NCBI GenBank assembly: GCA_012862495.1
Contig: BLSG01000168.1
Location: 1-32,701 of the forward strand
Direction of reading: 5' to 3'
Length of the DNA: 32,701 bases
From: Thraustochytrium aureum
Lineage: Eukaryota
Shown: piece after piece, positions 1 through 30,023 of the stretch
Position numbering within the stretch: position 1 is the stretch's first letter
Layout: each line of letters begins with the position of its first letter
Program-made: the position numbers and the translations under genes
The notes under the pieces: model-generated
Told to the model about the DNA's origin: nothing
Seen by the model: only the letters and a program-made list of their open reading frames with translations
Database searches by the model: none

Positions 1-2
1 CG

Positions 3-3000
3 GGCTAGCTCCGTGGCGCGCTGTGCCGCTTCTAAAGAGGCTTGGTGTTTGCTTTGTCGGGCGAGGATACGAGCCACGTCGAGCAGCAGGGCTGACCCGA
101 GCTCGCGCTCGCGGGGCGCAACGAGTGCGTCCTCGATCGTAGCCGTGAGCCTAACGAGGTTGCTGGAAAACCACACGTCCAACTTGGCGCGGACTGCCTT
201 GGTGATGCCGTCGAGTCCGCCGAGCTCGCTGGCTGCACCGATGAGAATCTGCGTGTCCTGTGCCCTTGCACAGCCGGCCGAACGCGCGTCCACCATGGCA
301 AACCCGTCTCGAAGGCCCGTGAGAACGCTGGCCAAGTTGCTGGCGTCCTCACGCACAGCGGCAAGCACAATGTCCAGCTTTCGCGCGTGCAGCAGCTCCC
401 AGAGGCACCAAGACCGGTGCAGCGGACGAGGCAACTCCGAAACAGGGTCGTCATCGAGACAAAGCACCACACTGGAAAACCTGCCAAGCGCGTCTGGCAA
501 CGCAGACGAAACGAGCTCTTCGAGCCTCCGCTGCGGTGCCTTGCCTGCCTCAAGCGCCAGTACCCAGGCCTGGTTGACGCTGAGCTCGTCCAGCCACAGA
601 AAGGGCGCCACGCCGCTGTTCTCTGGCGCGGCGAAAAACTTGCCCACTGACGCGCAGAGGTCGGTGAGGCGCGTTGCCCTCGAGTGGCTCACAAAAACGC
701 CCGCGTAGGGCTCTCCCACCGCGTTGGGCTCGGATTTGCGCAGAAGATCCACGTAGCACTTTTTCTTGGGCACCGCTTCAACCTTGACGACATGATCGCA
801 TATGTCGGCGAGGCTCCAGTCCTTGCGGTCCTTTGGTTCTACCGCCGCCGCAGGAAGGGTCAATTTTTGGCCGTTCCATGGCAGGCGCACCACGATCGAG
901 CCGTCGCAGGACGACGCTTGGCCCTTCACGACGAGAGCGGTAACCCCCTTGCGCGCGACGAGTTTGCCATCCATGCTGTAGCTGCTCGCAAAGGTGCACA
1001 AGTTGGTCCCAGCAGCGGCTTTGCCACTGCCCACGCGCTCTGCGAGTTCAACAAGCCATCTGAGGGACACGCCAGCAAAGTCCCAGTGTTTGCGCTTGGC
1101 CTTGCGAGCAGAGATTGGTGACGCTATCGCGGCCGCCGCGCGGGCTGCGCGACTTTGCTGCGGCTTTTTCTCGGAGGCGGCCAAGGCAGGAGATTGGCCC
1201 TTTGCAAGCCGGCTCGCGCTTTGGCGGCGCTGCGCCGGGGCTGACTCGACAGATGCAGCGCCGTCCGGCCGCACAACAGAGGGCTGCATTTCGTCTCCGT
1301 CCGCGGGGGCCTCGAGGTGTGAGGCATGCGACCCTGCTGACGCGGACCCTGCTGACGCGGACCCTGCAGACGCGCGGCTCGGCCGCGCTCTAGCGGCGCT
1401 GTTCCGCCGCAAGGGATGAGCATCTTCATCCTGACTCGTCTGCGATCGGCTGGTTCGCGCAGGGCTGTTGAGCGCCGCTGAACTCGCTGCAGCGAGGGCG
1501 GTCCAGTCGACACTAGAACGGCGTTCCCCGGGAGTGGAGGCGTTCGGGGAGCGGCCAGCGGCTTGCGCCCGGGCATCGAGCTGCGCTTCCATTGTCGGAG
1601 GCGACGCCTCTTTTGGCGTCGCACGAGGTTCAGCAGCAAGCTGCTCGGCAGGACGCGACTGGCTGTTCCGGGCAACAGGTGACTCGTTCTTCATGCCGTC
1701 GAGCGGGTCGAGGGGGGGGAGCGGGGGCATCGGTGGCGCAAGGCTGGCCCGGCTTGGCTTTGGCGCAGGGCTTCCTGCAGCAAAGAATTGCGGGCTGAGT
1801 ACGGCCGATTCCGCGGTTTCCTCGACCTGGTCCTTTGGAGACTCGCGCGACTGGGCCACCGGCTCGGCTCCGTCTCGAGCTGGCGGCGAACTCTTGTCAG
1901 CAAACTTGATGAGCGGGGAGCTTGGCGTCGGCGCAACGGCGCTTGGGGCGCCGCTGGTGCCGAACGAGCTCGTGAAACGGTTCTTGAGCGCTGCAGCATT
2001 CATTACGTTGCTGAATGCAGCGAAGACGTGCGTGCGCGGGAGCGTGCGCGAGTTGCGCACCGGCTTGAAGCGGCCCAGCTTGGCTGGTTTCAGAGCAGCG
2101 CCGGGGTCTGATGCAGAAGTGGTCGCGCGGCTAGACCCGATACTTGCGAGGCCTGAAACAGACAACCTCTTGCGCGCGTCGGCCGCCGCCGCGCCGGTGT
2201 CGTCGTCGTCCTCTCGACTGGGGCCCGTGTCGTGGAGCAAGTGGCTCAGGTGCTCGAGTGCTTTGGCGTGGTCAGAGCCAAAGCGCTGGAGGGCGAGCAC
2301 GGTGGCCTCGTCCACCCAGTTTGGAAGGACACGCACCTCGTTCGTGCAGAGCACTGCGCACCCGTGGATGTACTTGCTGAAACCCGGGACGTGCTCCATC
2401 CCCCCCCCTCGACGAGCTGCAGGAGCCAAATTGGGAGTAAGGGCGGCTGCTGCGAGAGGCGCCCTGTTGCCGTCTGGTCAATGTTAAGCACGCCGTGGTC
2501 AAAGTCAGTGTTGACGATTGGAGTCTTGCCGGAGAGGGGCGTGAACCAACGCGATTCAATCGCAGAGTCCAGGCCCACGCTTGGCGTCTCAAGAACCATG
2601 GTCACGAAGGAGTCCAGCGAGATCCGCAGACTCGGCAGCCGGTGCGTGTCAAAGCATACACGCTTGTAGATTGTCCTCAAGACGGGGCGAAGCATCTTGG
2701 AGACGATCTGGTCGCGAACCTCGGTGAAAAGGCGCTCGACACGCGCCTGCTCTTCAATAGACTGGCCAGCAGCCCGCATCTCCGCGAGTCTCTCCTCGAC
2801 GGTGTACTCGCCGCGGAGGAAGGCCATGACCAGACCCTCCCGGAGAGTAAACGTCTCCCTCGTGACCACGTCGCTGAGCTCGGAGTGTGTGAGCCGCTCG
2901 ACGAAAACCAGCTCGGGGCTCGCGGTGGCAAACCAGCGCAGCCTGATCGAGGTCCCATTGCGCCTGCCAATCACGCGCCCATGGTACGACTCCAGCTGAA

Positions 3001-3718
3001 CGTTGTCAAAGTAGACCGTGCTGCAGATGTGAGACTCGCCCTGGAGCGCATCGACCACGGACTGGTCCTGCCGCCGCTTGGGGAGGTGAGCCGACAGCTC
3101 GTTGGCGACCGCATTGACGTGCGCCTTGGGAATCAGAAACGATTTGCGGCCCGTCGCGAGCTCCGCAGAGACGTGCGGCGAGGCAAAGTCGAGCGCGGCC
3201 TCGGGGACCACGGCATCGTGGAGCCGCCGGAGCAGAGGCAGCAGGTCGGCGCAATCCCGGGCGACCCAGTGTTGGTCATGGATCGCGCCCACAAACGAGG
3301 GGAGCCGCTCCACGCGAAGGAAGAGGTCGTGCAACTTGACCAGCTCTTTGATGCAGAGCAGGTGCAGGTTGATGAAGGACTCGAGGCGCTGGAACCGGTT
3401 GGCCAGGGCGCGGATCTCTTTGGCGGCGGTTTGCCGCTTTTCGTCAGAGTCTTCGCTGTCCTCGACGCGGCCGAGCAGCCGCTCAGCCTCTGCCTGAAGC
3501 TCGTCCCAGTTCCGCTTGCAGAACGCGTCCAACGCGCTCAGCCCGGCGACGTACTCGGCCACGAGGGCGGCCTCGGCCTCCTGGACCTCGTTTTCGGGGT
3601 GCCCCTGGCGTCGAGCGGCTGCGGCGGCCTTGATCTCGTCCTTCCAGCTCCTGAACGCAAGGCCTTCGCCTCTCCACTCGGGGTCCACACTCGCCTCGTA
3701 AAACACGACGAAGTTCAT
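3..3718 (-). CDS. SPX-VTC-linker-TIR/HET-like-(TPR) fusion protein; 3'-partial (runs off the window); one frameshift at the C9 run 2400-2408
   Basis: ATG at 3718 (MNFVVFYEASVDPEW, SPX-like start). VTC motifs STVYFDN, IRLRWF, VFVERLTH, LRPVLRTIYKR and LRISLD lie in ORF 2246..3910. Adding one G to the G9 run gives VEGGGMEHVPGFSKYIHGCA, the VTC terminal motif. I translated that frame by hand and it has no stop from 2399 to base 3 (about 799 codons). It encodes GVSLRWL, VFVSHS, WLDELSVNQ and RSWCLWEL. Confidence 0.8.
170..1075 (-). other. TIR/HET-like alpha/beta domain of the protist FVSH..WLD..NQ..RxWCxxE type
   Basis: Hand translation: GVSLRWL (1053-1073), DICDHVVK..CYVDLL, FVSH (684-695), WLDELSVNQ (570-596), VVLCL, RSWCLWE (396-416), then VDARSAGC...D...GGLDGITKAVRAKLDVW. 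As I recall, this motif order is typical of protist TPR-associated TIR/HET-like domains. Confidence 0.7.
1330..1374 (+). repeat. 15-bp coding tandem repeat x3 (GACCCTGCTGACGCG)
   Basis: Three near-perfect units. They encode SAGSA repeats in the linker of the minus-strand fusion protein. Confidence 0.85.
2330..3150 (-). other. VTC (CYTH/TTM tunnel) polyphosphate-polymerase-like domain
   Basis: Ordered motifs RKSF, STVYFDN, IRLRWF, FVERLTH, RPVLRTIYKRVCF, LRISLD, FDHGVLN and, after the frameshift, VPGFSKYIHG. Confidence 0.88.
3320..3718 (-). other. SPX-like N-terminal domain (degenerate)
   Basis: MNF..(x)..PEW...FRSWKDEIK at the start and LESFINLHLLCIKELVKLHD at the end match the SPX pattern MKF..W...Y..LKK / F..LN..GF.KI.KK.DK. 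It sits directly before a VTC domain, as in Vtc2/3/4. Confidence 0.7.
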
Positions 3719-4250
3719 GGTTGCAGCAGCCGGGCCGTCTCGTTGCTCTGGCGGCGCCGCCACTGCGCTGGCTGCTCCGCCTGGCTTCGGAGCGCAGCTA
3801 CGGGTCTGTCCGCAGACGCGCCAATTGACGGATTGGCGCTCGCTCTCGGCACGATGGAGGAGGGAGATGGATGAGGCGCGCGCCCCCTCGCGCAACGCTG
3901 GTTGGTTCATTCCGAGTCATGCCAGGTCATGAGAAAACGACAGAGTAAGTACCCTCGCTGCTGCTGAGCACTGGCAATTATGTATGTACGTACTCAGTAC
4001 TCTTCTGGTCTGGCACGCGTACTTCGAGCTCCACTGCACGGTCTTTGCAGTGGTAGTGGCGGTGTTGCGCGTGCACCTTTGCCCGCTTTCCTCTTGCCGC
4101 TGGTTGCCAGTGCAGGTCGGTGCAGGCTCCTTGGTGCAGGCAAGGGGATCCGACTTGGTGCGGGAAGTGTGAGCGTGGCACGGCGCCCTCCCATCAATCG
4201 CAGAGTCTTGGCAAGCGCCTCGGTCAGAGGAGCGGAGGGAGAAGAGAACG

Positions 4251-4273
4251 CCACCCACCCACCCACCCACCCA
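4251..4273. repeat. (CCCA)n microsatellite
   Basis: ccacccacccacccacccaccca, shortly before the N-gap. Confidence 0.9.
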
Positions 4274-5092
4274 TCGGCGTGTGGCGCATTTGCANNNNNN
4301 NNNNNNNNNNNNNNNNNNNNNNNNNNNNNNNNNNNNNNNNNNNNNNNNNNNNNNNNNNNNNNNNNNNNNNNNNNNNNNNNNNNNNNNNNNNNNNNNNNNN
4401 NNNNNNNNNNNNNNNNNNNNNNNNNNNNNNNNNNNNNNNNNNNNNNNNNNNNNNNNNNNNNNNNNNNNNNNNNNNNNNNNNNNNNNNNNNNNNNNNNNNN
4501 NNNNNNNNNNNNNNNNNNNNNNNNNNNNNNNNNNNNNNNNNNNNNNNNNNNNNNNNNNNNNNNNNNNNNNNNNNNNNNNNNNNNNNNNNNNNNNNNNNNN
4601 NNNNNNNNNNNNNNNNNNNNNNNNNNNNNNNNNNNNNNNNNNNNNNNNNNNNNNNNNNNNNNNNNNNNNNNNNNNNNNNNNNNNNNNNNNNNNNNNNNNN
4701 NNNNNNNNNNNNNNNNNNNNNNNNNNNNNNNNNNNNNNNNNNNNNNNNNNNNNNNNNNNNNNNNNNNNNNNNNNNNNNNNNNNNNNNNNNNNNNNNNNNN
4801 NNNNNNNNNNNNNNNNNNNNNNNNNNNNNNNNNNNNNNNNNNNNNNNNNNNNNNNNNNNNNNNNNNNNNNNNNNNNNNNNNNNNNNNNNNNNNNNNNNNN
4901 NNNNNNNNNNNNNNNNNNNNNNNNNNNNNNNNNNNNNNNTGCCGTCGCTGTCAAAGTCCTCCTCGTGCTCGTCGCCCATTGCCGCAACGCCCTCCTCGTC
5001 CTCGGCCTCGCCGCCTACCGGCCCGTGAAGCGCCCTGTGCCAGCGGCGAAGGCCTTGCGGGCGTTGCTGCGCCTTCTGCTGGCGCGCGCGGG

Positions 5093-6202
5093 ATGGGGCG
5101 GCTGCGGCCCAGCGACGAGGCGGCGTGGCGCGAGCGCGGGTTTAGCGTCGTGCAGGACCTGGTCCGCCCCGAGGCTGTGCTGGCCGCGCGGGCAGCATGC
5201 TACGGGGAGGCCGACGCGCTGGCGCAGGGGCGGATGCCCTTTGGGAGCAGCGGCAAGTGGGAGTTTCCGTCCAGCAACACTGCTCTCAACACGCTGTGCT
5301 TAAGCGTGGAGCTCATGGAGGCCGCCGCTCAGCTGCTGCAGACCCGCGACATCAGGCTCACGCAAGCAGACGCGTGGATCAAGCACGGCGAAAGCGCTGG
5401 CGCTGACCCGCGCGACAGGCCGTACTTTGCCAGCGTTGAACAGCGCATGCACATGGACTTCGCAAACCACGACTTGGCGCATCCGCGTCCGTGGGCTGAG
5501 CCAGACGCGGTGGCCGTCATTATCTTCATGGATGACTCCCGGGCGTGCGGCGGGCGCACCGGCGTGGTACCTCGCTCTGGCCCGGCCGACCCTGCCTACC
5601 AAGCGCCGTACATCGGTCTCCCTGGCGTCGGCAAGCTCCCGTGGATCAACGACCGCCAGCAAGCGGAGGCGCACATCGCGCGCAGCGACCCAGCGCTGGC
5701 AGCGTTTCGCAAGGGGCTATACGAGCGAGAGGAGCTGGTCGACTTTAGGCCAGGCAGCGTGCTGCTCTACCGGCACGACCTGTGGCATCGTGGCCGGCCC
5801 GTTGAGACGGGGGCCCGCCGCCTCGTGTGCAACCTCGTCTTTCGTCGCGCCGGCGCCGGCAATATCAACCGCTGGAACCCGGGCTTTGCGCGCTTCTTCT
5901 ACAACATTCGGGCCATTCTGCAAGGTGCGGAATCCGCCAAGGAGCCTCGTGTCGGCAACGTTGAACAGCTTTTCGTCGAGGCGTCGCCGTGGCAGCGCCT
6001 CGTGCTGGGCTTTCCCGCTCCGGGCGACCCCTTTTGGGACGAAGCGGCTTTGAGTTGGTGCCAAGCGCGCTGGGGGCCGCTTGGGATGGACATGTCGCCT
6101 TATTGGCGTGCACTAAAGGAGAACCGAACGCTGACCTCCAAGGTTGCCAAGCTGCGCGCGCAGCTTGCCGAAGCGCAGGAGGAGATCCTGAGCCATATCT
6201 AA
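5093..6202 (+). CDS. Phytanoyl-CoA dioxygenase (PhyH) family Fe(II)/2-oxoglutarate dioxygenase, 369 aa
   Basis: ATG at 5093. N-terminal WRERGFSVVQDLV (PhyH GY.VV..L pattern), HxD iron motif MHMD, GGRTGVVP, and PGSVLLYRHDLWHRG with the distal His. C-terminal coiled-coil-like tail. Substrate unknown. Confidence 0.75.
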   Translation: MGRLRPSDEAAWRERGFSVVQDLVRPEAVLAARAACYGEADALAQGRMPFGSSGKWEFPSSNTALNTLCLSVELMEAAAQLLQTRDIRLTQADAWIKHGESAGADPRDRPYFASVEQRMHMDFANHDLAHPRPWAEPDAVAVIIFMDDSRACGGRTGVVPRSGPADPAYQAPYIGLPGVGKLPWINDRQQAEAHIARSDPALAAFRKGLYEREELVDFRPGSVLLYRHDLWHRGRPVETGARRLVCNLVFRRAGAGNINRWNPGFARFFYNIRAILQGAESAKEPRVGNVEQLFVEASPWQRLVLGFPAPGDPFWDEAALSWCQARWGPLGMDMSPYWRALKENRTLTSKVAKLRAQLAEAQEEILSHI

Positions 6203-6516: not shown

Positions 6517-9500
6517 TCAACCGAGAGTAGTGACGTTCTCCGTCCCGTGCCCGCGCAGCATGATTACGGTTTTCAAGCCTGCAGTAAGCTCCTCCGTGTA
6601 GAGCACAAATTCGTTCGTCGGCGTCACACGCGAGAGCGGCAGGTTGAGCACAATGAGGTCCGCCTTACTCGAGTGCTCGCGGATCTTCTCATTCAGGTAT
6701 GCCGCTGTTGCCAGGCGCTTCGCGAGGCGACGTTTGTCCCGTGACTTACTTGCGAGGATGCCACGGCGCACTTGAAACGCAGCGGAGGACTCGACATCGA
6801 ATGGTTCTTCCAAGTTGTGCGACACGGCCGCCGATTCCGCGCTTCGCTGCGCAGTGGCGCTCGAGGCGCCGAGCACAGAGACTTGGCACACCGGTGGCAC
6901 AGCAGTGTTGGACGGCTCTGCCAAGGCGCCAATTGTGGAAACCGGCGGGACTGGCGGGCGCTGCAGGTCGACCACCGGCGCGGCGATTGAGCCGGACGGC
7001 ACTGTGCCAGGGCCATAGCTGCTTGCGAGCGCATCTGACTCTTGCGCGTGTGCCGCATCCTCCTCCTCGTCGCCATCGCCCTCGTTAATATCGTCCATTG
7101 GCGCAAAGAGCGACGAGAGGTTGGAGGCGGCTGCCTTGCCGCTGTACTTTTCCGAGATCCAGCGCTGCGTCTCCTCCCCGCTGCTCTCCTTGATGAACTG
7201 CGCAATTTCAGCCACCTTGGCAGGGTCGGCAACAGGCTCGCTTGGAGCGCCGTCTGGGACGGCGAGACTGCTCTTGTCGCCGGAACCGCTGCGCCGCCGC
7301 GACAAGCGACGACCAAGCGACCGGCGGGAGCCCTTGGACGGAGTTGACGCAGCACCAACGCCAGCCCCCGAGTCGCCTCCATCCTGGCCGCTCGCCTCGG
7401 GGACCCCGCCGCCCCCGCTCTCGTCCACGGGCGGAGCAGCGCTAACAAGCGGCTGGAACAAGTCTGCCGAGAGGATCGCGCTCGGTTCCGCGGCTTCAGG
7501 CAGCTTGGGTGCCTAATCATCACAGTTCTGTTCTGGTCCACGTCGCGGGCTGCGNNNNNNNNNNNNNNNNNNNNNNNNNNNNNNNNNNNNNNNNNNNNNN
7601 NNNNNNNNNNNNNNNNNNNNNNNNNNNNNNNNNNNNNNNNNNNNNNNNNNNNNNNNNNNNNNNNNNNNNNNNNNNNNNNNNNNNNNNNNNNNNNNNNNNN
7701 NNNNNNCTCGATGCGGAGGTCTTGCAGGTGCCGCGAAAGGATCGCGTGCGATGCGGAAAAGTCTACCAAGTCGTCCGCAATCGCGAAGATCCGAAGCTTG
7801 GCGCTCGCCCAGACCTTGTGGCGCTGCAGCAGGTAGGGAAGGAGGACCAGCATGTCCCCGTCATGGAGCAGCCACCACACGTCTATTCGCGAAGTGCGGT
7901 CGTCATTGCTCGGGAACCGCTTCTCAGTCTTCACAACAATGATGGCCTTTTGGCACCCGATCGCGTCTTTCAACATGCCCACGTACGAGTGCTGGTGCCG
8001 CTTGGAGGAGATCGCGCCCTGCTGAGGGCCTCCACCCGCGCTGCGCGGAGAAAGCGGGGCTGTCGCACCTGGGTCCGGCCGCCATTTGCGCGGCCACCCG
8101 CACATGATCGTGTTTGGACTCAGCATGCCAAGACCCTTGCTCTGGAAGAGCACACGAAGCGGCTCGAGCAGATTCGGCCCGGACGCCAAGACCACGTCCG
8201 TAAACCCGCTCACGTCGCCCGACTGCAACGCAAAGGCAAGAAAGCGACGCGCTCGCGCACAGCGTACCTTGGAAGCGTCATCGAGCACATCGCCATGCAA
8301 CACGGTGTTGACAATCGTCAGCCCGTGGCCTTTCTTGAGCTGCGAGGCCAGCCGGAGGAGGCCTGGCTGCGTGATCCTGAATCCGCCGCGGCGGTCTGGT
8401 CGTTCCTCTAGCTTGCACAGAACGAGAATTTGCGGCCGCCAGTCCCGTTCTGTCATCGTGCCGCCGGCCTGCTCCTCAAACGCCTCGTTTGCCAAGATGT
8501 CGTCCTCAAAGTCGACGAGGTCGTCGTCAAAACCTAGCGAGCGGGTCGAGGACCTTCGGTCATCCCCAGCGATTTCCGGATCGTGAGCCTTGCGGGGCTC
8601 TTCCTCTGGGTCCCACCTGTCCAGGCAGGGGCAGCAGAAGGCCGCAAAGTCGGAAAGCCACGCGCACCTGCCCCGTGGCTTCCCCGCCTGCTCTGAGGCA
8701 TCAAATGCTCCCGGAAGGCGCGCCCGCGTCGGGGTAGAGTTGAGCCACGAGCCGCGGCGGCCGCCCACGCGCCTTTTGCGGCGACGCAGCTCGGCATGGC
8801 GCTTCTGCAAGTAGATCGCGCTGAGCTCGAGCAAAGCGTTTTTGGCCTGATCGAGGCGCAGGCCGAAGAGCGCGTCGCCCCACTCCTTCTTTTCGCGGTG
8901 GTGGCGGATATACAGATAGATCGCGGAGACTAGCAAAAGGGCCACAAACGCATAGAGCACCGAAATGACAAACATGAGCACCGCGCACAGCATGAATCCT
9001 AGTAGCGCAGTGCTCCAATGAAAGTATTTCCACGTGGGGCGGAACTGCGGCGAGCGGAGAATGGCCGACAGGAAGCACGCCAAGTTGATGCTCCCGTACA
9101 TGGTGAGGAAGAACATCGTGATGATCGGCGTAATGTAGTCCAGGTTCCCAGCAAGGCAGACGAGCGCGGTGAGCGTCGTGGTCACAACCACGGCTCGGCG
9201 AGGCTCGTCGTCCCCCTTGGCGGTGCCGAAAGGCCGAAGAAACGGGATGTGCCCGTCATTAGCGATCGAGCGTAGGAGCTGCGGAGCGCCTGTCAAGGAC
9301 TGGAGACCGGCCCCGTAAGTGCTGAGGATGATGCCGATGGCCACGATGTACCGGTGCGGCCACGCGATGAAGGAGGCCACGAGCTTGTTGTCCTTGAGCG
9401 TCTCGTTGGCGACCACCAAGCCAAAGAGCAGGATCGTCACGATGTATAGCCCAGTGGTGGTCGCGATGGCCCCAAGCGTTCCCTTCGGGATGGATCGTCC

Positions 9501-10541
9501 TGGCGTGGCGAGCACGGCGCTGCGGTTCGTCCCTGCCATGATTCCAGTCACTGAGGGGTAGAATAGCGCGATCATAAATACAAAGTTGGGCACGATGCCT
9601 GTCTCCGGATCGATCTCGTAGCTGGGCGACAGGTTCTCCTTCGCGGAGGCGGCCTTGGCCACGCCCTCCGGTTCCCAAACGCCGGCAGCAAAAAGGATCG
9701 CCCCGAGAAACATGAAGAAAACAGCAAGGAGGACGATCGCGAGGAAAAGCGAAGCCACTCGTGCGACGTACTTGACACCAGCAAAAACGATGATCCCTTG
9801 AGAAAGCGTCGTTAAGATCGCAAAGACTTGTCGGTCGAACGCGAACAGCTCGCCCTGGGGCACAAAGTTGGTGTAGATCGCCTCTACGCCACCCAAATTG
9901 TACATGGTGGCAGCGATTGTGGTGCCCAAGTAGAACAAGACACCGATGGACCCGCCGATCTCGGCGCCCATGGAGTCGAGCACGATCGCGTAAGGCCCGC
10001 CAGCACGGATTTCGCCGTTTGTGGCCAGCGCGCTCAAGCTCAGCGTCGTTAGCGTCGTGGAGGCCACGCAAATGAACACGACCACGATGGCCTGCACGAT
10101 GCCGGCCTGGCCAACGATCCAAGGCAATCGCAGAAACAGGATCACGCCCAGGATGTTTTGCAAGCATGGCAGGTACACCCCTGCCAAAGTCCCAAATTTT
10201 CTGACGACAACGTCCTCCGGACGGGCCGGGCCTACCAAGCCCGGGTTCCCCGGTGCTGAGTGCGCCATGTTGCCTTTCTTCCGTAGCCGCAGCGTGTCAT
10301 CGATCTTTATGCTTTCCTCGAAGTGCTCATAGAAGCTGTTCTGCCAGCGCAACCGCCCTCCGTCCTCGCCCATGCCCACCATGCTTCCCTCGGCAAACTT
10401 GTCGAGTGCCTCTTGGTCGTCCTGCGCGAGAACCCTCGCGCGATTCTCTACCTCGTCCCCGAGCGCTTCGTCCTGGCTCAACGTCTTGGCGACTCCAACC
10501 GGTGGGCTCGAGCTTGGCGCGTTGACGGATTGCATCTCCAT
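6517..10541 (-). CDS. Cation-chloride cotransporter (SLC12/CCC family, KCC-like); spans gap 7555-7706 and one frame change near 7510
   Basis: GTLAGVYLPCLQNILGVILFLRLPWIVG, LSLSALATNG, FYPSVTGIMAGTNRS, SLTGAPQLL, FRPTWKYFHW, WGD, WRPQILVL and IDVWWLLHDG. The family C-terminus (LNEKIREHS..LIVLNLP..EELTAGL..VIMLRGHGTENVT) is in ORF 6517..7461. Likely ATG at 10541. Confidence 0.93.
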
Positions 10542-10595
10542 CGCGCTGCTTCCGCTGGCCCTCTCGCGATCGGCCTCTCGCACTCGCCAGTGATT

Positions 10596-10638
10596 GCCTG
10601 GCTGGCTGGCTGGCTGCCTGGTTGCCTGCCTGCCTGGC
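10596..10638. repeat. Imperfect (GGCT)/(GCCT) tetranucleotide repeat upstream of the CCC start
   Basis: gcctggctggctggctggctgcctggttgcctgcctgcctggc. Confidence 0.8.
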
Positions 10639-11038
10639 TTTTGTGCTGAGCACAGGGCTCTCTTTGCCTTTGGTGCTGGTTGACGTCGTGGCAAACGGTG
10701 GTGGCGCCAACAATGCGTCCGGACCACGAAAGTCGAAGGCCGCTGCGCAGGCGCGTGTGCCCCCCCAAGCCGCCTCGTTTGCGCGCCTGCTCTCTGTTTG
10801 CCGCAGGGGTGGCTAGCCGAGCAACCGGCGCGAAAGTAAAGGGCGGCGGTCGGCCCGCAAACCCTCTCCGTTTGCTCGTTCACCGACCCGTTGCACGTTG
10901 CCGTCACACAGCAGCGTGGAGCCTTGAATGAAACAGCCCCCAAGCAACAGGACCACCCACCCCCTCGCTCGCTTGTTCGATGGCCCGCCTGCTGCAGCGC
11001 TGCGCGATTGATCGATCAGCACTGTGGCACTGTCTGCT

Positions 11039-11223: not shown

Positions 11224-12630
11224 TCATGCGGACTCGTCAAAGGCAACCAGACTGGCGCCAAACTCAAAGAGCCCCACGGCGCGCGTTCGCTGCAAGACAG
11301 CCGGCTCGCCCTGGCGGCGCAGCGCAAACTCCCACATGCCCAGGGCCTCATGAATCTCAAACGTGTCTTCGTGCATAAGGAAGGCGTGCTGCCACAGCCC
11401 TGCGCCCGCCCCGCGCGCAATCGTTATGTCCAGTACATACTTGGCTTGCAGAATTCCAATTTGGAACCGAAACGTGCTGCCAAGCGTAGCGTTTCCGATT
11501 CCGCCGGGCGTGGGAGGTGCTGCAAACCATTCTGGAGCAATGGCGTCCATCGGGGTTGCCCCGCTGAAGGAGGCGCAGCTCCCATCGTTTGACATGAGCC
11601 CGCCCAGCACCATGTTCTGCAGCGTGTTGCCATACTCTGTAAATGCGCCAGTGAGGTAGGTGTACGGCGTGCCGTCCACGACGAGGGGCTCCTCAAAGCG
11701 CACGGCTGGCCACCAGATATATCGCCGAATGAACGCCCAGTTTCGGATCCCAAAATTGTGGTCGCGCGAGCCGTCCAGGGCGTTGAGCTCCACGACGGCA
11801 TCGCCCTCAACCCCGCCTTTAAACGTGACATGCCCGTCCACCTTGTCGGCCAGACTCGCGTACCGCTCTTGGTTTTGCGCGCGAAGGTTTCTCCAAAAGG
11901 AGGCGGTCCAGGGCTTGCCCGCCATCGCCCGGCCGGCAGCGAGCTCGTCCCAGTGGATTTGGTACTTGAACACGTTCTCGCGCCGCATGGTGAGGACGAA
12001 CGTGGCAGATACCTCGCGGCGCTCGCCGGTGGACAGGTTTTCCAAAACGCCGTCATAGCTGATGACCCACTCGCGCATCGGGTCGGTGCAGATGAACCGA
12101 AGCGTCCCGAGGCTGCACTTTGCCTCGATAGGTCCGCCTTCCTGCCGCGGCGTGACCATGCTTTGAAACTCGGCAGGCAGGTTCCAGCGCTCGCCGTCCA
12201 GCTCGAAGTGGAACCATGGAATAACCTCTGACGCGCCCTTTCCGTAAAAGCTCAGTCTCACAGTGTACAGAAATCTGGGCCCCGCTGGCTTGCGGCTAGT
12301 CGAGCCGTCTGCGAACACGGCGTCCCGAGAGTTGGCCCAAAAGTAGTAGTTTTCGGTGAAGAAGCTGCTTTCCTTCAGGTCCGCCCGGTCCTGGCCAAAG
12401 TTGTTGAACACGAGCTTGTCGTGGAAGCCCTCCATGTCAGCGTCGCTGGGGGGCTCTTTCAGCAGACGAGCCAGACGCGGAAACTGGCACAATGCAAAGG
12501 CTGCCATATCTTTGACAAAGCCGCCCCCGAACGGCGCTAGCTCGCTCGCGTTGTACGCTGCCCAGCGAGCGCTGGGCAGGGCGACGGCAGCAGCGACCGC
12601 AACAGCTGCTGCGAGCTGGGAAAGCCCCAT
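11224..12630 (-). CDS. Uncharacterised protein with signal peptide/anchor; probable AttH/CrtC/tocopherol-cyclase-like double beta-barrel, 468 aa
   Basis: Intact ORF with hydrophobic N-terminus (LAAAVAVAAAVALP). Aromatic beta-rich motifs ENYYFW, LRFICTDPMREWVISYDG and GSRDHNFGIRNW resemble the E.WYF / P...W / G.RDHSWG.R.W pattern of this clan. The fold assignment is from memory. Confidence 0.65.
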   Translation of the reverse strand: MGLSQLAAAVAVAAAVALPSARWAAYNASELAPFGGGFVKDMAAFALCQFPRLARLLKEPPSDADMEGFHDKLVFNNFGQDRADLKESSFFTENYYFWANSRDAVFADGSTSRKPAGPRFLYTVRLSFYGKGASEVIPWFHFELDGERWNLPAEFQSMVTPRQEGGPIEAKCSLGTLRFICTDPMREWVISYDGVLENLSTGERREVSATFVLTMRRENVFKYQIHWDELAAGRAMAGKPWTASFWRNLRAQNQERYASLADKVDGHVTFKGGVEGDAVVELNALDGSRDHNFGIRNWAFIRRYIWWPAVRFEEPLVVDGTPYTYLTGAFTEYGNTLQNMVLGGLMSNDGSCASFSGATPMDAIAPEWFAAPPTPGGIGNATLGSTFRFQIGILQAKYVLDITIARGAGAGLWQHAFLMHEDTFEIHEALGMWEFALRRQGEPAVLQRTRAVGLFEFGASLVAFDESA

Positions 12631-12998
12631 TTCTCGATGGCGTTGCCCGTCGTCCCACTTTGCTTGCCCTCTCTTCGCGCGCGAGGCTTTCCTTGGCCGC
12701 GGGCCGCCAGCTCTTTTCTGACGACTCCTTCGAAAGGGCGTTCTGCTGCAGCGGACTGTCGCCGGTCAGCTGTGGTGGCGTCCTCATCGCGATCATCGAT
12801 CCCGGAAGCGACGAAGAGTTCGCTCCGTGCGAACGCGAGATGATAGGACGATCACGCAATGAGAAAATGAGAATGACTCGCATGTCCATGGATGACTCGA
12901 CGACTCAACTGAAACTGCAGGCTTGCAGGCCACTTACCCACGCACTCAGCATCGGGCAGGCAGAGCAGTCACTGATTGGACAGCCCCGCGCGCTCGAG

Positions 12999-14384
12999 AT
13001 GGCGCTCAAGGGCGTCAAGGTGCTCGAGCTGGCTGGCCTTGCGCCTAGCCCGTACGCAGGTTTGCTCCTCCAGCAGAACGGGGCTGAGGTCATTCGCGTG
13101 GACCGACACGATGGGTCGCCCAAAGACCCCGCAGGCGGCGCCCTCCACATGAAGCCCTCCGTGGCGCTCAATCTCAAGACGGCGGAAGGCAAAGCCGCTC
13201 TCGTCAGACTCGCAAAGTCAGCCGATGTGCTGCTCGATCCGTCAGACCAGGCGTTCTCGAAAAGCTCGGGGTCGGCCCTCAAGCGCTCATGGCTGCCAAC
13301 CCTCGCCTCATCGTTGCACAGCTCACCGGATGGGGTCAAGAAGGCCCGTTCAGCCAGCTGGCTGGCCATGACATCAACTACGTTGGCCTCACTGGGGCAC
13401 TTGACGCGATGCGGCGTGCCGGGGAGACGGAGCGGCCCCTACCGCCCATCAACCTGCTTGGCGACTTTGCGGCAGGCNNNNNNNNNNNNNNNNNNNNNNN
13501 NNNNNNNNNNNNNNNNNNNNNNNNNNNNNNNNNNNNNNNNNNNNNNNNNNNNNNNNNNNNNNNNNNNNNNNNNNNNNNNNNNNNNNNNNNNNNNNNNNNN
13601 NNNNNNNNNNNNNNNNNNNNNNNNNNNNNNNNNNNNNNNNNNNNNNNNNNNNNNNNNNNNNNNNNNNNNNGCGGCAGGCGGCATGCTCTGCGCTCTAGGC
13701 GTGGTCATGGCACTGGTCGAGCGCGCTTCCTCTGGGAAAGGCCAGCTGGTTGACGTCTCAATGGTGGATGGTGTGGCCCACCTCGCCACGTTTGTGTTTC
13801 GCCTCCGCGCGGCCGGGGCGTGGCATGACGCGCCAGGGACAAATGTGCTCGATTCGGGCGCGCCCTTCTACGACACCTACATTTGCAAGGACGGCAAGTA
13901 CATGGCTGTTGGGTGCATCGAGCCGCAGTTTTATCGCTTGCTTTTGCGCGGGCTCGGCCTAGACGCGGACAAGACGATGCCCAAGCAGATGGACGCCAAG
14001 CGCTGGCCAGAGCTCAGGGCGCGCCTCGCCGCCCGTTTTCTCACGCGTACGCGTGACGAGTGGACCGAGGTGTTCTCTGGCCCACTGCAAGATGCGTGCT
14101 GCACACCGATCCTTTCGCTCGCCGAGGCACCGTCACACCCGCATATGGCGCGCTCCTTTGTGCGAGGCGAGGGCGAATTGGACGTTCAGCCTGCGCCGGT
14201 GCCGCGATTCTCGCGGACGCCAGGGTATCCTAGCGCGATGGGCAAGGGCAGCGTGCCGCGAGACGGAGCGAACACGCGCGAGATCCTCCTGCGAAGCGGA
14301 TTTTCTCGTGACGAAGTCGACGCGCTGATCGCAGGTGGCCATGCCGTGCAAGCCGCTCCGCGCGAAGCGTCTTCGAGACTGTAG
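12999..14384 (+). CDS. AMACR: Alpha-methylacyl-CoA racemase (CaiB/BaiF family III CoA-transferase fold), peroxisomal; 1-nt deletion near 13242 and gap 13478-13670
   Basis: [18 protein letters not shown], then DVLLDP(F)RPGVLEKLG after restoring one T. GHDINY and [10 protein letters not shown] carry the catalytic His and Asp. Also [48 protein letters not shown] and C-terminal SRL (PTS1). Confidence 0.9.
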
Positions 14385-14650: not shown

Positions 14651-15844
14651 CTAGCCCGTCTCTCCTTTGGAGGGCTTGGCTGCGCTGGAACCCACTAGTT
14701 CCCGCGCGGTTTCGATCAGTCTGACGCACTCGTCTCGCGTTCGCGTGAAACGAGCCACGAGGACTTCACGCTCCTGCTTTGCGCTCCGATCCCTGGAAGC
14801 GGCTTGGCGCCGGGTCGCTTCAGCCTCTTCACGTGCAGCGCGCTCCGCAGATTGCGACTCGTGAAGCGCCTGCACAAGAGCCTCCACGGTGTGCGCGAGC
14901 CGGCCGATATGTGCTCGCGCGCGCTCGGCGGTTTGATAGGGGTCAACAGACATGTCGTGTTGAGAGCGAACAAGCCACTGCTTGGCTTTGTACACTCGCT
15001 CGGACGCGGCTCGTGGGAGATCCGCAGCACTGTCGATCTCCGCGTGTTCAGACAGGCGACCTTTTCGAATCAGCCTTGCGGCACCAGATGGAGACCGGCG
15101 CAGGGAACCAGCGGGTTCTGGGTCCCCCAAACCTCGGCGTCTTTCTGCCAGGGATCTACTTTGGTGCCCACCTCGCTCTGCAATCGCACTAGCGCCAAGC
15201 CTAGCCGGTTCATCACGTCCATAGTGGGCAGCCTCTGGGCTCCTATCAGGTTTCCTATCAAACTCAGCCAGAGGCTGTAAAGTACGGACAGGAGACGTTG
15301 CCCCAAGGCTTGCATAAAACACGTCGCCGGCCCGTTGCGGCCAACTGTGCTCGCTGGGAGGCCGCCATGGTCGTTGCAGAGTCTGACTTGTGTTGAGTGA
15401 GGCGAGACCGGCAAATGCGCCCCCTTTCAGAGCGTCTTCCCGCGCTTTGGGCGGCTCCGCTTGACGTGGCACTGCTTTCTGCTCCGGCGCCATTTCGTTT
15501 GAAGCGATCTGCCCTTTGGCGCCTTCAAGGCGGGCCAAGTACTCGTCTGCTTCGTCCATCACGCTCCGCGGCGCTGGCTGCCTGGGCCTTTCACGCTCGT
15601 GCAGCTTCCTCTCTATCGCCTCCCCCGACAAGGGCGACCGCGGGCTTCCCGCAATCGCCTCATAGGCAGCGCTGAACGTGCTGGGCTTGGCCAGGCCTCG
15701 CAGCTCGGGTTGCGACTTGAGAATCTCCCTCACGTGGTTGTCGCTGTTGACGCCCTTCAGCAGGGACTTGCGGGACACGGTCCCCCTGTCGTCGTGTCCG
15801 AGGGCCGCGAATAGCTCCTCCACGAGCCCAGCGCCCTGCGGCAT
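14651..15844 (-). CDS. Hypothetical protein with degenerate EF-hand-like N-terminus and C-terminal coiled coil, about 397 aa
   Basis: First ATG of ORF 14651..16066 is at 15844. ELFAALGHDDRGTVSRKSL resembles an EF-hand loop. LAHTVEALVQALHESQSAERAAREEAE.. has heptad character. It fills the space between AMACR and dynein. Confidence 0.55.
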   Translation of the reverse strand: MPQGAGLVEELFAALGHDDRGTVSRKSLLKGVNSDNHVREILKSQPELRGLAKPSTFSAAYEAIAGSPRSPLSGEAIERKLHERERPRQPAPRSVMDEADEYLARLEGAKGQIASNEMAPEQKAVPRQAEPPKAREDALKGGAFAGLASLNTSQTLQRPWRPPSEHSWPQRAGDVFYASLGATSPVRTLQPLAEFDRKPDRSPEAAHYGRDEPARLGASAIAERGGHQSRSLAERRRGLGDPEPAGSLRRSPSGAARLIRKGRLSEHAEIDSAADLPRAASERVYKAKQWLVRSQHDMSVDPYQTAERARAHIGRLAHTVEALVQALHESQSAERAAREEAEATRRQAASRDRSAKQEREVLVARFTRTRDECVRLIETARELVGSSAAKPSKGETG

Positions 15845-16668
15845 CCTCGCGAGCAGGTCGCCTGGATCTGCGCTATTCCGTCCATTGGCTGCCTGCCAGT
15901 GGGCCTCTGTGCCGAGTAGCCCCAGCGCAACTGCCGCGTCACAGGCTCCTCTGTGTATCGTCACGTGCCCTAACGGTAATGCACTTCTGCCGTGCAAGAA
16001 CACCTTTTTTTCACTAGTAAGGACAGGGCGCAAGAACCCCGGAGCCAGAGGACAGAGGCACGTCAATGCCGCAACGGTAACATTGCCCTTGCACCTCGCT
16101 CGACTTCCTGCAAGCGACGAGGCGGGCCTCCAGGGGCCGGCGATGGCCAGGCGAGCGCAGGGCCAGGCGAGCGCAGCGCAGAGGCGCCTTCTTGGCGGCG
16201 GGATGCGCCGACTTCAATTTCACTTCGCTCGCTTGGGCAGTCGGTTCACGCCGGGTTCGATGGAAAGAGGCGGGTTGTTGACGACTCGGAGGACAAGTCT
16301 GAAAGAGGGCCGTTGACGAACGAANNNNNNNNNNNNNNNNNNNNNNNNNNNNNNNNNNNNNNNNNNNNNNNNNNNNNNNNNNNNNNNNNNNNNNNNNNNN
16401 NNNNNNNNNNNNNNNNNNNNNNNNNNNNNNNNNNNNNNNNNNNNNNNNNNNNNNNNNNNNNNNNNNNNNNNNNNNNNNNNAGGCAGACGTGCTGGCAGGC
16501 AGCAGAGCGCGCCGCAGTGGCCGACTCGCGCGCGGGACAGCAGGGGAAGGACTCACAGGCTGCGCGCCGCTCCTCCAAAAGTAGGGGTCCTGCAGCACGA
16601 AGGCGGCGCGCCGCTGGCTGACCGACCGCCCGTCCGCTCGACCGGACAGCGCTGGCCCGGCGGCCGCA

Positions 16669-19600
16669 ATGGACGGCCGGGAGCAAGATGCCACACAGGA
16701 CGCGCAAAAGGGCAAGGCGCAGGATGTGGCCAAGGCGAAGGCCGACGGTAGCACAGCAACAAATGTGAGCCTGGGGTTCGAGTACCCAAGCGACAGCAAG
16801 GCCGCCAGCAGCAAACCGCGCAGAGCCAACGCCGAGCTCAAGGCGGGTGCGCGCCGACTCAACACGACGGCAAGCGAGAGCAAACTCAGCAAACTCAAAC
16901 GCAGGTTCCCGCAAAAGCTCCCTGGCATCCGCCAGAACGCGGCGACCGCCAACCTCCTGCCAGAACTCGACTTTCTGGGCGAGGACGGGCGAGCCGCCCC
17001 GTCAGGGCTGGGGAGAAAGACCCTCTCGAAGAGCGCTGCAGAGGACGAACGTAGCGAGTTTGACTCCGAAAATGCTGCTCTTGGTACAATCGAGCAAAAG
17101 GACCATGGCGCAGACGACGGCAGTCGCGGACGCGAGCAAAGGCCCTCTCGACGCCGCGCCGGCGCCGCTGACCCGCTCCCTTTTACTGAGAGCGTCAAGC
17201 ACCTCCCAGAGCTCAAGGACTCGGAGGATGTGATTGCGTTCTTTGCCCGCAACCGCGACGACGGCGATGCTGGACTCCGCGGGGACAACACTTTCGCCCC
17301 GCTCAAGTTTGTCACTTTGAACCGCCTCGACACCCAGAGGCGCTTTCGCCCTTACAGCCTTGTCGCCGTTGAGCCACGCCACGTGAATCCGAACGAGTAC
17401 TACGTGATGACGGCCACGTCGGTCATGCAGTTCGGCACACCGAGCGACGGCCGCAGCGCGGAGACGGGCGCGGGATCACTCAGCGATGAGGACAAGGCGT
17501 TTGCACAGAGTTCGGCAGCCGTTCTACCAGGCCGGCTGGGCAAAGCGATCCCGACCGACATCATGCCAATGTCGCAGTGGATCCATGAATCAACGTGCTT
17601 TCGCGTGATCTCAAACCTGGGCACTTTCAAGTACTACATGGAGCGCAAATCGATTCGCAAGTGGCGCGCTGCAGTGCGCTACAGCAAGTTCTGCCGGGTG
17701 CAACGGAAGGTTGAGAATCTCTTGCTTCTCGCCAAGCCGCACTTTCGCGAGGTGCACCATCTCGTGCTTCGCGAGATGGAGGCGCTTCTCGAGAGCCCGG
17801 CGTTCACCCTCGAGTCTCGTCGGTCCTCGAATTTGTCCGCCTTTGCGCAGCGCCAGATCGAGAACCTAGAAGGACGGGTCATGTCCCAAGTCGCGCAGAT
17901 CGGCCACACTCTTGGCCAGAGTGTGGTCCGCGCCACGCACGCGCTAAAGAAGGACTTGCGGATGCTGAACGACCAGCTTGTGCGGAACAAGAACAACCTG
18001 AACAGCGCAACCAAGAGCATGGTGGAGGCTCGCGTGGAGCGCGAGTCCACTCTCAAGGCGATCCAAAACACAGAGTACAACCTGCGTCGTTTGCCCGAGT
18101 TTTGCCGCATGCTCAACTACGTCGTTTTGGGAAAGCTGCTCGGCCTCATCATTGATTCCTACGAGACGCTCGTGGGCTTTGTGGCAAACCCTATTAGCAC
18201 GCACTCTGGCGTCTTCAAGGTGATGATCGAGCTGCGGCAAGAACAGGCTGCCCTCGAGGCGCGAACCGAGGCCGTGCAGCCAAACCAAGATGACCCAGAC
18301 GGGTCTGCGCCAGAGCTGCAAGACCCGCTCGCTGGCGTGTACCACGTCATGGACCCATCCGAAGACGAGATGTTCAATTCGTTCACTGACTTTTGCACCA
18401 AGCTCCTCGACACGGTGGACTCTTTTCCATTGCTCATGGTGCCCGACAAGGTCACCGGCGACGTCAGCGCGGTTCCGCCCTATGACCCTGACGCAAACCA
18501 CGCTCCAGTGGAGAACCGCATGAGCCCGATGACGAGCGTCACGGCGACGTGCGCCGACTACGACTCGCTCAACGCCACCTTCGAGCGCCTCTATGAGGCG
18601 ATCGAGCGCTCCTACCGAGAGGGCAACGCGTTCGGCGAGACGTTCTGCCAGCGGTTTCAGGAGATCTTCGTTGGCCTGCAGTCCTTTGATGCAGACCAGT
18701 ACGTCGCCCAGAACCTCGACTTTCTCACCTTGCAGAAGGATCTCTTCATGTTCAGCGACTGGGGCAAGGAGATCAACAACATGAAGCTCGAGACCAAGTG
18801 CGGCACGCTCATGGTCATCGAGACGCGCTCCTTCAAGGACAAGCTTCTGGGCTTGCTCAACCTGCCTCTCAGCACCTGCAAGGATGCCTAGAGCGACTTG
18901 GCCGCGACCAGGTCGCCGCTTTGGCCGACCAATTCCGCGTCGCATGCACCGAGCCTGGAAGTGGACCAGAACGCCAACCTCTCCGCGCACTCGGCCTACG
19001 TGGAGAACTTTAACCACCACCAGGCCGCGCAAAAGTTTCACGAGCGGACCTTCGACCTGATCCAGGACATCTACTCCCTGATGAAGCAGTTCCAGGTGCG
19101 CCACTCCATCGAAGACGCGGCGCGCCTCGAAGAGGTCGCGGAGGAAAAGATCCGCTTCGAGGAGTCGGTAGCTCGCGCGCGAAACTACATTGCAGCGCAA
19201 AACAATGCCTACGTGGACAAGCTCAAGCGCGGCATCAAGACCATGGAGGACTATTGCGAGCAGATGACGCTTCAGCTCTCGCGCGAGCCCTTCAACGACC
19301 CCGAGCAGGAGACAGAGGCCATGGTCGAACAGCTCGACAAGCTGCAAGCCAAGTGGGACGCCCAGCTTGAAAAGGCAAAGCAGTACGCAAACCAAATGGA
19401 GCTCCTTGTGGGCGGCAAAAAGCGCCCCGAGGACAAACCCTCTGTTACGTACAACTACGAGGTCGGGGCCGTCGAGAATTGCCGCAGCGTGCTTGAAAAG
19501 CGCAGAAACGTCTGGGGCTGCTGGAACCGCTGGAACCAGGACTACTTTCGCTGGTGGAATACCGACATCTCGGTCCTCCTCAACCCAGAGAAGAACGAGG

Positions 19601-28600: not shown

Positions 28601-30023
28601 AGAGCGGCGCAACTTTGGGACCCTGGGCTGGAACATTCCGTACGAGTTTAGCGCGAACGACATGATCATCTCGGTCAAGCAGCTCGCCATGTTTCTTGAC
28701 CTGTACGAGGACTCGTTCAAGGCGCTCGTGTACTGCACCGGGGAGGCCAACTATGGCGGTCGCGTCACGGACGACAAAGATCGCAGGCTCCTGCTGACGA
28801 TTTTGTCCAAGTTTTACAACGAGGGCGTCTTGGAGGAGGGCTTCGAGATCGCAGAAGGGTACCCGTTCCCGCCAGATGGGTCGTACGGGGACTATCTCAA
28901 GTTTATCGAGCAGATCCCGCTCGTGGACAGCCCAAAAGTGTTTGGGCTGCACGACAACGGCAACATTACGAAAGGCCAGAAGGAGACGCAGAGCTTGTTT
29001 CAGTCTATTCTGCTCACCCAAAAGGCGGCCGCCGGCCCGGCCACCGATAAGAATGATGATGAAGAGGACGCGGAGGGCGGGGCCGACGCCGAAGAGGCCA
29101 AGGAGTCTGAGGCGGCCGAAGAGGCGGAGGTCGCCGGGCCCCAATCCGAAGAAGACGTAATCTTTGAGGTGGCGTCTGGCGTCCTGGCAAAGCTCGAGGA
29201 GCGCTTTTTCGACCTCGCGCTCGCAGAGCTCAAGTACCCGGTCCGTTGGGATGAGTCGATGAACACCGTTCTGACGCAGGAGTGCAGCAAGTTCAACGGC
29301 CTCAACAAGGTGATCGTAGACTCGCTTCGCGAGCTGAAGAAGGCGGTCCGGGGTTTTGTGGTGATGTCCGAGGAGCTCGAAAAGGTCGGGCGCTCGCTTT
29401 TCTTGGGCACGGTGCCGGCGAAGTGGCTCGGCGCGTCATACCCGAGCCTCAAGCCGCTTGCCTCGTACGTGGCGGACTTGTGCCGCCGCCTCGACTTTCT
29501 GCAGGCCTGGCTGGACGGCGGTATGCCACCAGCGTACTGGATCAGCGGTTTCTTTTTCACCCAGGCGTTCCTGACGGGGACCCTGCAAAATTATGCGCGC
29601 AAGTACGCCGTCCCCATCGACGAGGTCGTGTTTGACTTCAAAATGCTGCCTCTGCGCGAGGACTCGTACACGACTTCGCCAGAGGACGGAGCGTACGTGT
29701 ACGGCCTATTTGTGGAGGGCGCGCGGTGGGACAAGGAAGTCAACACCCTGGCAGACTCGCTGCCCAAGATTCTGCTCTCGGAGGCGCCGGTGATCCACTT
29801 GCAGCCGAAGCGCAAGACGGAGATTGTGCCGATTCACTCGTACCAGTGCCCGGTGTACCGCACCTCGGAGCGTCGCGGTATCCTGAGCACGACGGGGATG
29901 AGTACGATGTTTATCTTTTACCTGGACGTCCCGATCCCAGAGCCAAGCGACAGCGACCCGCGCTCCAAGCAGGACTACTGGATCATCGCCGGGGTGGCAA
30001 TGCTGGCCGCCACGGACGACTAG
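16669..30023 (+). CDS. Axonemal dynein heavy chain, single-headed inner-arm type, roughly 4400 aa; broken by indels (about 18888, 18955, 19890, 23550) and two gaps
   Basis: [32 protein letters not shown]1 GPAGTGKT (21498), CFDEFNRI, P3 GPTGTGKS (after removing one G at 23550-23553), [12 protein letters not shown]4 GVGGSGRQ, stalk/[47 protein letters not shown] and CPVYRT. AAA2 falls in gap 22237-23059. Confidence 0.97.

Follow-up and report, generated by a model that had tools for sequence, protein, structure and literature searches.

A Thraustochytrium aureum gene predicted to join a degenerate SPX-VTC module to a TIR-like domain and TPR repeats

Among the cited papers, and within the parts of them on which we draw, VTC domains belong to membrane-anchored polyphosphate machines. 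In Vtc4, triphosphate and manganese are bound in the tunnel (TTM) domain by K200, R264, R266, K281, Y359, R361, E426, S457 and K458, and alanine mutants of K200 and K281 make less polyphosphate, E426 being the manganese ligand (bioRxiv 2023.01.27.525886). The Vtc4 ligands of inositol phosphates (InsP) form a phosphate-binding cluster (PBC; Y22, K26 and K133) and a lysine surface cluster (KSC; K129, K132 and K136), mutants of either cluster show a lowered stimulation by InsP6, and E426N is part of a triple mutant that inactivates the enzyme (PMC9911596). The inactive Vtc3 TTM stacks on the Vtc4 TTM (bioRxiv 2023.01.27.525886), the Vtc2 SPX binds the Vtc4 SPX (PMC10167327), and three transmembrane helices are given for every diatom Vtc subunit listed (PMC7283521). 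Protist TIR domains with the catalytic glutamate can be active NADases, including a Chlamydomonas TIR whose clade also holds thraustochytrid proteins, while some with the glutamate are inactive in vitro; the proteins of that study were chosen among those annotated as TIR (bioRxiv 2026.04.20.719644). The HET domain is a death effector related to TIR, and homologues of it have been reported in stramenopiles (PMC4986451). In the present study, we analysed a gene on the minus strand of contig BLSG01000168.1 (assembly GCA_012862495.1) of Thraustochytrium aureum, in the stretch of 32,701 nucleotides that is here called the window, in which parts of both kinds appear to be joined in one protein.

Read from position 3718 to 3, the gene encodes in order an SPX domain, a VTC domain, a 405-residue linker, a TIR-like domain with an SH3-fold insert, and the first TPR hairpin, and the visible protein has 1239 residues if one G is added at a run of nine (Table 1). 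An initial annotation, made from the DNA letters alone, had placed the VPGFSKYIHG motif, the linker, the FVSH / WLD..NQ / RSWCLWE motifs and a TPR-like helix in a single frame, and all of these do lie in open reading frame (ORF) B; the same annotation had the linker as Pro/Ser/Ala-rich and about 400 residues long, which agrees with its composition. ORF A matches yeast Vtc4 as far as about residue 444 (E 1e-25), and the VPGFSKYIHG motif of ORF B corresponds to residues 450-481 of yeast Vtc4, its last strand (E 0.017-0.026); each frame thus carries a part of the domain, with the break at the G run and the S457 and K458 equivalents in the ORF B part. One extra G gives gap-free Vtc4 spacing, with exactly five residues between the two aligned blocks as in Vtc4, and an extra base is present in one contig of the DNA run X2 (2342-2564, depth 2.8). 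We therefore infer ten G as the most likely reading of the run. The contigs of four public runs (X1-X4) were compared with window positions 1-4300; that X1, X3 and X4 are RNA is a guess, as no run is recorded as such. Overlapping contigs tile the gene (X3 2439-3785, X2 2342-2564, X3 1345-2388, X2 364-1510 and X3 1-1359) and no joints were listed for the contigs of the four runs on this stretch, so a misjoin in the linker, which the initial annotation had named among the things that would undo its proposal, is unlikely. Overall, the SPX-VTC-linker-TIR-like-TPR architecture is very probably real, and the proposal of one gene was upheld by the restored spacing, the X2 contig and the tiling.

The VTC domain was recognised by Pfam (PF09359, 91 bits against a cut-off of 23), and its sequence is nearer to Vtc4 (E 1e-25) than to Vtc2/3 (E 1e-12 to 3e-10). 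Six of the nine tunnel residues are kept (R264, R266, Y359, R361, S457 and K458) and three are replaced (K200 by S193, K281 by L276 and E426 by N412), so the catalytic residue set of Vtc4 is incomplete; in addition, K428 is changed to D414. The position of K200 was taken from a profile of eight bacterial VTC proteins and is less certain, a lysine standing one residue before. After the TTM, no Pfam match to transmembrane helices or DUF202 was found in ORF B and the highest 19-residue hydropathy of the visible part was 1.24, in keeping with the earlier view that the membrane anchor is absent.

The SPX domain was without a match in the Pfam scan and was identified by its fold. In the single-sequence model, which was poor over the VTC domain (pLDDT under 50) and was used for the SPX only, all eight top structural matches were SPX domains, among them that of C. 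thermophilum Vtc4 (Z 14.4, root-mean-square deviation 3.1, 171 aligned); the SPX-VTC module proposed earlier is thus found by fold in one part and by Pfam in the other. The residues F22, K26, E125, K128, L129 and L132 correspond to Vtc4 Y22, K26, K129, K132, K133 and K136 in a mapping through an XPR1 SPX alignment that is weak (E 0.28) and gap-free at both motifs. By this mapping, only two of the six ligands (PBC and KSC) of an inositol-pyrophosphate receptor are kept, K26 and the equivalent of K132, the others being changed as Y22F, K129E, K133L and K136L. With four of six InsP-binding and three of nine catalytic residues lost, the SPX-VTC module is predicted to be a pseudo-enzyme in which polyphosphate synthesis is lost and InsP sensing is lost or weak, and the proposal that it senses InsP/ATP status was not supported in that form, since K200, K281 and the manganese ligand E426 are replaced together with most InsP positions. 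The route to inactivity is predicted to differ from that of yeast Vtc2/3, which lose K458.

The C-terminal half was modelled with a pLDDT of 93.7, with alternating strands and helices in the core followed by the TPR hairpin. Its motifs lie at F131-S133 (695), W164-D166 (596), Q172 (572) and R224-W226-C227-E230 (416-398), and the SH3 insert, which like the loss of catalytic and InsP-binding residues is absent from the initial annotation, resembles Src-family SH3 domains (Foldseek probability 1.0, TM 0.7; Z 7.0, root-mean-square deviation 2.6, 53 aligned). The TIR models of Pfam, NCBIfam and PADLOC did not name the domain, the NCBIfam and PADLOC matches being to TPR only. When a profile of 150 family cores was compared with 24 bacterial TIR_2 domains by hhalign, a match of P 8.9e-6 was obtained (probability 83%, 111 columns, score 38.8), and the controls scored 17.2 or less (60 column shuffles), 10.7 (reversed profile) and 10.3 (bacterial VTC profile). 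The alignment pairs the strand A motif, the W-x-D on strand B and the catalytic glutamate on helix C (E230). Of 113 aligned homologues, 112 have this predicted catalytic residue, and D166, Q172, R224, W226, C227 and E230 are all retained in the fusion protein. These results argue for a TIR-like fold in the C-terminal half, and the domain is a likely candidate for NAD+ cleavage. Of the TIR/HET-like assignment made at first, the TIR part was borne out by the profile match and the kept glutamate, and membership of HET was not: no match of the query to PF06985 was found at E<=1, the families shown for 34 homologues (25 of 38) did not include it, and a scan of 251 genomes gave no HET match, with controls equally silent. 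The W-x-D...Q motif presumably resembles that of HET. No Pfam match to NB-ARC or NACHT was found between the TIR-like domain and the TPR, and the hairpin adjoins the TIR-like domain directly.

For this half, a HMMER search of 1.84 billion representatives gave 194 relatives at E<=1e-3 (clusters at 50% identity), the best with 37% identity and E 2e-26. Among 30 scanned homologues, 25 carried TPR families, 2 leucine-rich repeats and 3 no match at E 0.001, and none had SPX or VTC; the SPX-VTC half was likewise unmatched in any of the 150 homologues listed. An organism is given for nine of 20 looked-up homologues (Hondaea 4, Durusdinium 3, Aplanochytrium 1, Thraustochytrium 1), which points to a labyrinthulomycete-like protist as host, and the database labels are kinesin light chain, nephrocystin-3 or TPR protein. 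In the family members (proteins P0003-P0152), an R-x-W-C-x-x-E motif is near-invariant and fusions to leucine-rich repeats, ankyrin, kinase, NEL E3 ligase, EF-hand and PH domains occur. In a quick tree of 145 rows, from which 6 short or weak rows were left out, the fusion protein joins a clade of 79 rows (support 93), and the SH3 insert, scored by profile coverage, is present in 68 of these 79 vs 5 of the 65 other rows. Word-index protein searches gave nothing, whether for the C-terminal half among longer proteins or for the SPX-VTC half among proteins of longer or similar length; an ordinary Vtc4 was also missed by them, so these blanks say little. The exact protein look-up was negative, the JGI metagenome scans with either half and the viral scan gave no relative, plasmid and phage tblastn gave chance matches only, the family alignment A2 found nothing in 201 prokaryote genomes, and the atlas matches were all under 0.9 and serve as leads only.

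Both halves are under purifying selection, the presumably dead SPX-VTC module included. We tallied 39 substitutions among the run contigs as silent or replacement and tested them against site counts, the variants being few and contig-derived. The SPX-VTC part had 5 silent and 0 replacement variants (P 0.0009) and the TIR-TPR part 6 silent and 1 replacement (P 0.001), which makes 11 of 12 silent in the folded parts together; the linker had 11 silent and 16 replacement (P 0.07). None of the 39 listed substitutions makes a stop, and the single deletion seen, in run X1, was of 15 nucleotides, in frame and in the linker. Such constraint on both halves argues against a pseudogene. A 15-nucleotide tandem repeat lies in the linker near 1330-1375, and its copy number differs between runs (the X1 deletion).

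The explanation that we put first, tentatively and at somewhat less than even chances, is that a dead, Vtc2/3-like SPX-VTC docking module holds a likely NAD-cutting TIR-TPR unit at the polyphosphate polymerase. Its origin would lie in a Vtc gene copy that lost its membrane anchor and became joined to one of the TIR-TPR genes, a family that is expanded in labyrinthulomycetes. Both inactive domains, TTM and SPX, may then bind a canonical Vtc4, as the yeast Vtc3 TTM and Vtc2 SPX do, and clustering on the VTC complex, or a ligand on the TPRs, would bring TIR domains together, whose E230 would cleave NAD+. The long flexible linker appears to fit tethering better than allostery. Several observations weigh against this explanation. 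The canonical Vtc4 of the organism is assumed, which makes the docking partner only putative, and K458, lost in yeast Vtc2/3, is kept here. Solved TIR structures were absent from the best 50 rows of three PDB fold searches, where SH3 domains and helical hairpins fill the rows, and the best viral fold match, to a TIR/WD40 protein, was weak (E 0.005, TM 0.22). At positions that are nearly conserved in the family, the fusion protein has other residues (W216>S, where the alignment is gappy, F140>L and A135>S), and its branch in the quick tree is long (1.39), so that it may be a less active NADase. No second species with an orthologous fusion came up in the searches. The ten-G reading comes from one contig of depth 2.8, and a single-contig difference under depth 5 may be an error; X2 may be non-independent of the source of the window; no single record among the contigs of the four runs spans the whole gene; and in each of the three RNA-like runs the contigs are interrupted at or close to the G run. 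A related possibility, which we consider rather unlikely, is that the dead SPX-VTC serves as an immune sensor that reports when the polyphosphate store is damaged or hijacked and sets off the TIR NADase of a family mislabelled as kinesin light chains.

Less probable again is a sensor of polyphosphate chains, in which the tunnel cannot polymerise and still binds polyphosphate, so that cytosolic chains would align several copies and switch on the TIR domains. The six kept triphosphate-site residues (R264, R266, R361, S457 and K458 among them) with loss of the metal ligand, the missing anchor behind the VTC domain and the purifying selection are all consistent with it, but two of the six basic residues that bind triphosphate, K200 and K281, have been lost, and yeast Vtc2/3 retain more such residues and act as structural partners (bioRxiv 2023.01.27.525886). 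It is also doubtful, slightly more so, that the fusion is real and its TIR-like domain is no NADase and forms, with the SH3 fold and the TPR, an interaction adaptor on the VTC complex. This would suit the consensus departures, the long branch and the TIRs that carry the glutamate and are inactive in vitro (bioRxiv 2026.04.20.719644), but the full set of motif residues from D166 to E230 is kept in a domain that is under purifying selection.

It is improbable that there is no fusion, that is, that the run of nine G is real, as a frameshifted allele or two genes, and yields a truncated SPX-VTC protein and a separate linker-TIR-TPR protein starting at Met 2399. The window does read nine G, ORF B has an ATG of its own and no record spans the gene. 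However, the split would remove the K458 strand from the VTC domain, an X2 contig has ten G, variation in the folded parts on both sides of the run is almost only silent, and similar indels break other conserved genes of the window, namely the CoA-transferase (13221-13264) and the Walker A motif of the dynein (23529-23574). A spliced intron over the run, for which there are ten GT-AG candidates, is unlikely because X1 contigs cover 2394-2413. Least probable of all is the version of the initial annotation, a working InsP/ATP sensor or soluble polyphosphate polymerase coupled to TIR, which has the intact SPX and VTC folds and the K26, K132 and K458 equivalents in its favour and has against it the four InsP-binding and three catalytic residues replaced where engineered mutants lose function, the SPX mapping being weak.

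Table 1. Positions of the fusion gene features and of neighbouring genes in the window
Feature	Position	Strand	Remarks
ORF A	3718 (ATG) to 2246 (stop)	-	490 residues
ORF B	2477 to 3	-	stop-free, 825 residues, first Met 2399, open at window start
SPX domain	3199..3718	-	residues 1-174; single-sequence model fold matches
VTC/TTM tunnel domain	2300..3160	-	predicted pseudo-enzyme; PF09359 E 9.9e-26
9-G run, site of frame change	2400-2408	-	most likely assembly error for 10 G
Linker	1086..2300	-	405 residues, Ala/Ser/Pro/Arg-rich (A 20%, S 15%, P 10%), stop-free, predicted disordered
TIR-like domain	171..1085	-	unannotated, protist; extended fold with SH3 insert
SH3-fold insert	833..1010	-	inside N-terminal extension of TIR-like domain; model residues 26-85
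TPR array start (helical hairpin)	3..170	-	hairpin matches at model residues 306-361
Probable transcript 5' end region	3778-3798	-	contig ends of three RNA-like runs at 3798, 3785, 3778
PhyH-like 2-oxoglutarate dioxygenase	5015-6202	+	Pfam E 0.0011, below cut-off
SLC12 cation-chloride cotransporter	6517-11015	-	PF03522 in C-terminal piece
ORFs of ~510-520 residues (two)	11224-12765, 14651-16213	-	no Pfam match at E 0.01
CoA-transferase family III / AMACR-like	12516-14384	+	named from motifs
Dynein heavy chain	16585-30023	+	recognised from motifs; five ORF pieces
COP9 signalosome subunit 5	30296-31249	-	JAB and CSN5_C

The RNA-like contig ends lie 60-80 nucleotides before the ATG, which is compatible with a transcript and no proof of one; contigs cannot mark a transcript start, and the DNA run X2 stops at 3733 too. 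At the other side the gene runs off the window, an X3 contig extending 495 nucleotides beyond the window start. An N gap separates the dioxygenase gene from the divergently oriented fusion gene, and the cotransporter gene is interrupted by a frame change and an N gap. The CoA-transferase has bacterial relatives up to 46-52% identical, and its frame change at 13221-13264 is probably an assembly indel. The reading frame of the dynein gene shifts near 19849-19925 and 23529-23574 and meets a stop at 18889-18891, and the gene contains N gaps; it illustrates how frequent indels are in the background of this assembly.

If the docking explanation is true, an integrated sensor or docking domain links phosphate storage to NAD-based signalling in a stramenopile, by means of a selected, anchor-less and dead copy of the VTC module. 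Apart from the fusion, a TIR-like family with a near-invariant catalytic glutamate (the 194 clusters) has been missed by Pfam and named after its TPRs. No SPX-VTC-TIR protein was found in the literature searched, most subscription journals being outside its scope, nor among the 150 listed homologues of the C-terminal half, which agrees with the earlier statement that no described protein of this architecture was known. The 'VTC' of PMC6514570 is, from the part of that paper on which we draw, an unrelated domain.

Like Vtc4, Vtc2 and Vtc3, the fusion protein has the SPX followed by the VTC/TTM, in the same order, and K458 is kept as in Vtc4. Unlike them, it has no transmembrane helices after the TTM in the visible part, K200, K281 and E426 are replaced, the InsP clusters are degenerate, and TIR-like and TPR domains stand at the C-terminus. 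In yeast Vtc2/Vtc3 it is K458 that is changed, to Ile/Leu, with the other tunnel residues kept, the reverse of the present case (bioRxiv 2023.01.27.525886). With protist proteins labelled 'Kinesin light chain' or 'Nephrocystin-3', such as GBG28694.1 and GBG33660.1 of Hondaea, it shares the TIR-like domain and a tail of kinesin light chain-type TPRs, whereas SPX or VTC is present in none of the 150 listed homologues and most begin directly with the TIR-like domain. The strand A motif, the W-x-D and the helix C glutamate align by profile with TIR NADases (TIR_2 PF13676, protist TIRs and TeTIR). In contrast to these (protist TIRs, bioRxiv 2026.04.20.719644; TeTIR, bioRxiv 2026.09.21.753143), the present domain is undetected by TIR models, has an SH3-extended fold and has no STAND ATPase in the visible part. 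From fungal HET proteins it differs in the lack of a PF06985 match and of NACHT-WD40. In plant NLRs with integrated decoys, a degenerate housekeeping domain is joined to an immune-type effector and repeats; unlike these, the fusion protein has no NB-ARC and no pathogen effector is known, so the likeness is an analogy only. Overall, the parts of the fusion protein are known and their combination, seen in one lineage, is new; both phosphate-handling sites are worn down and still selected.

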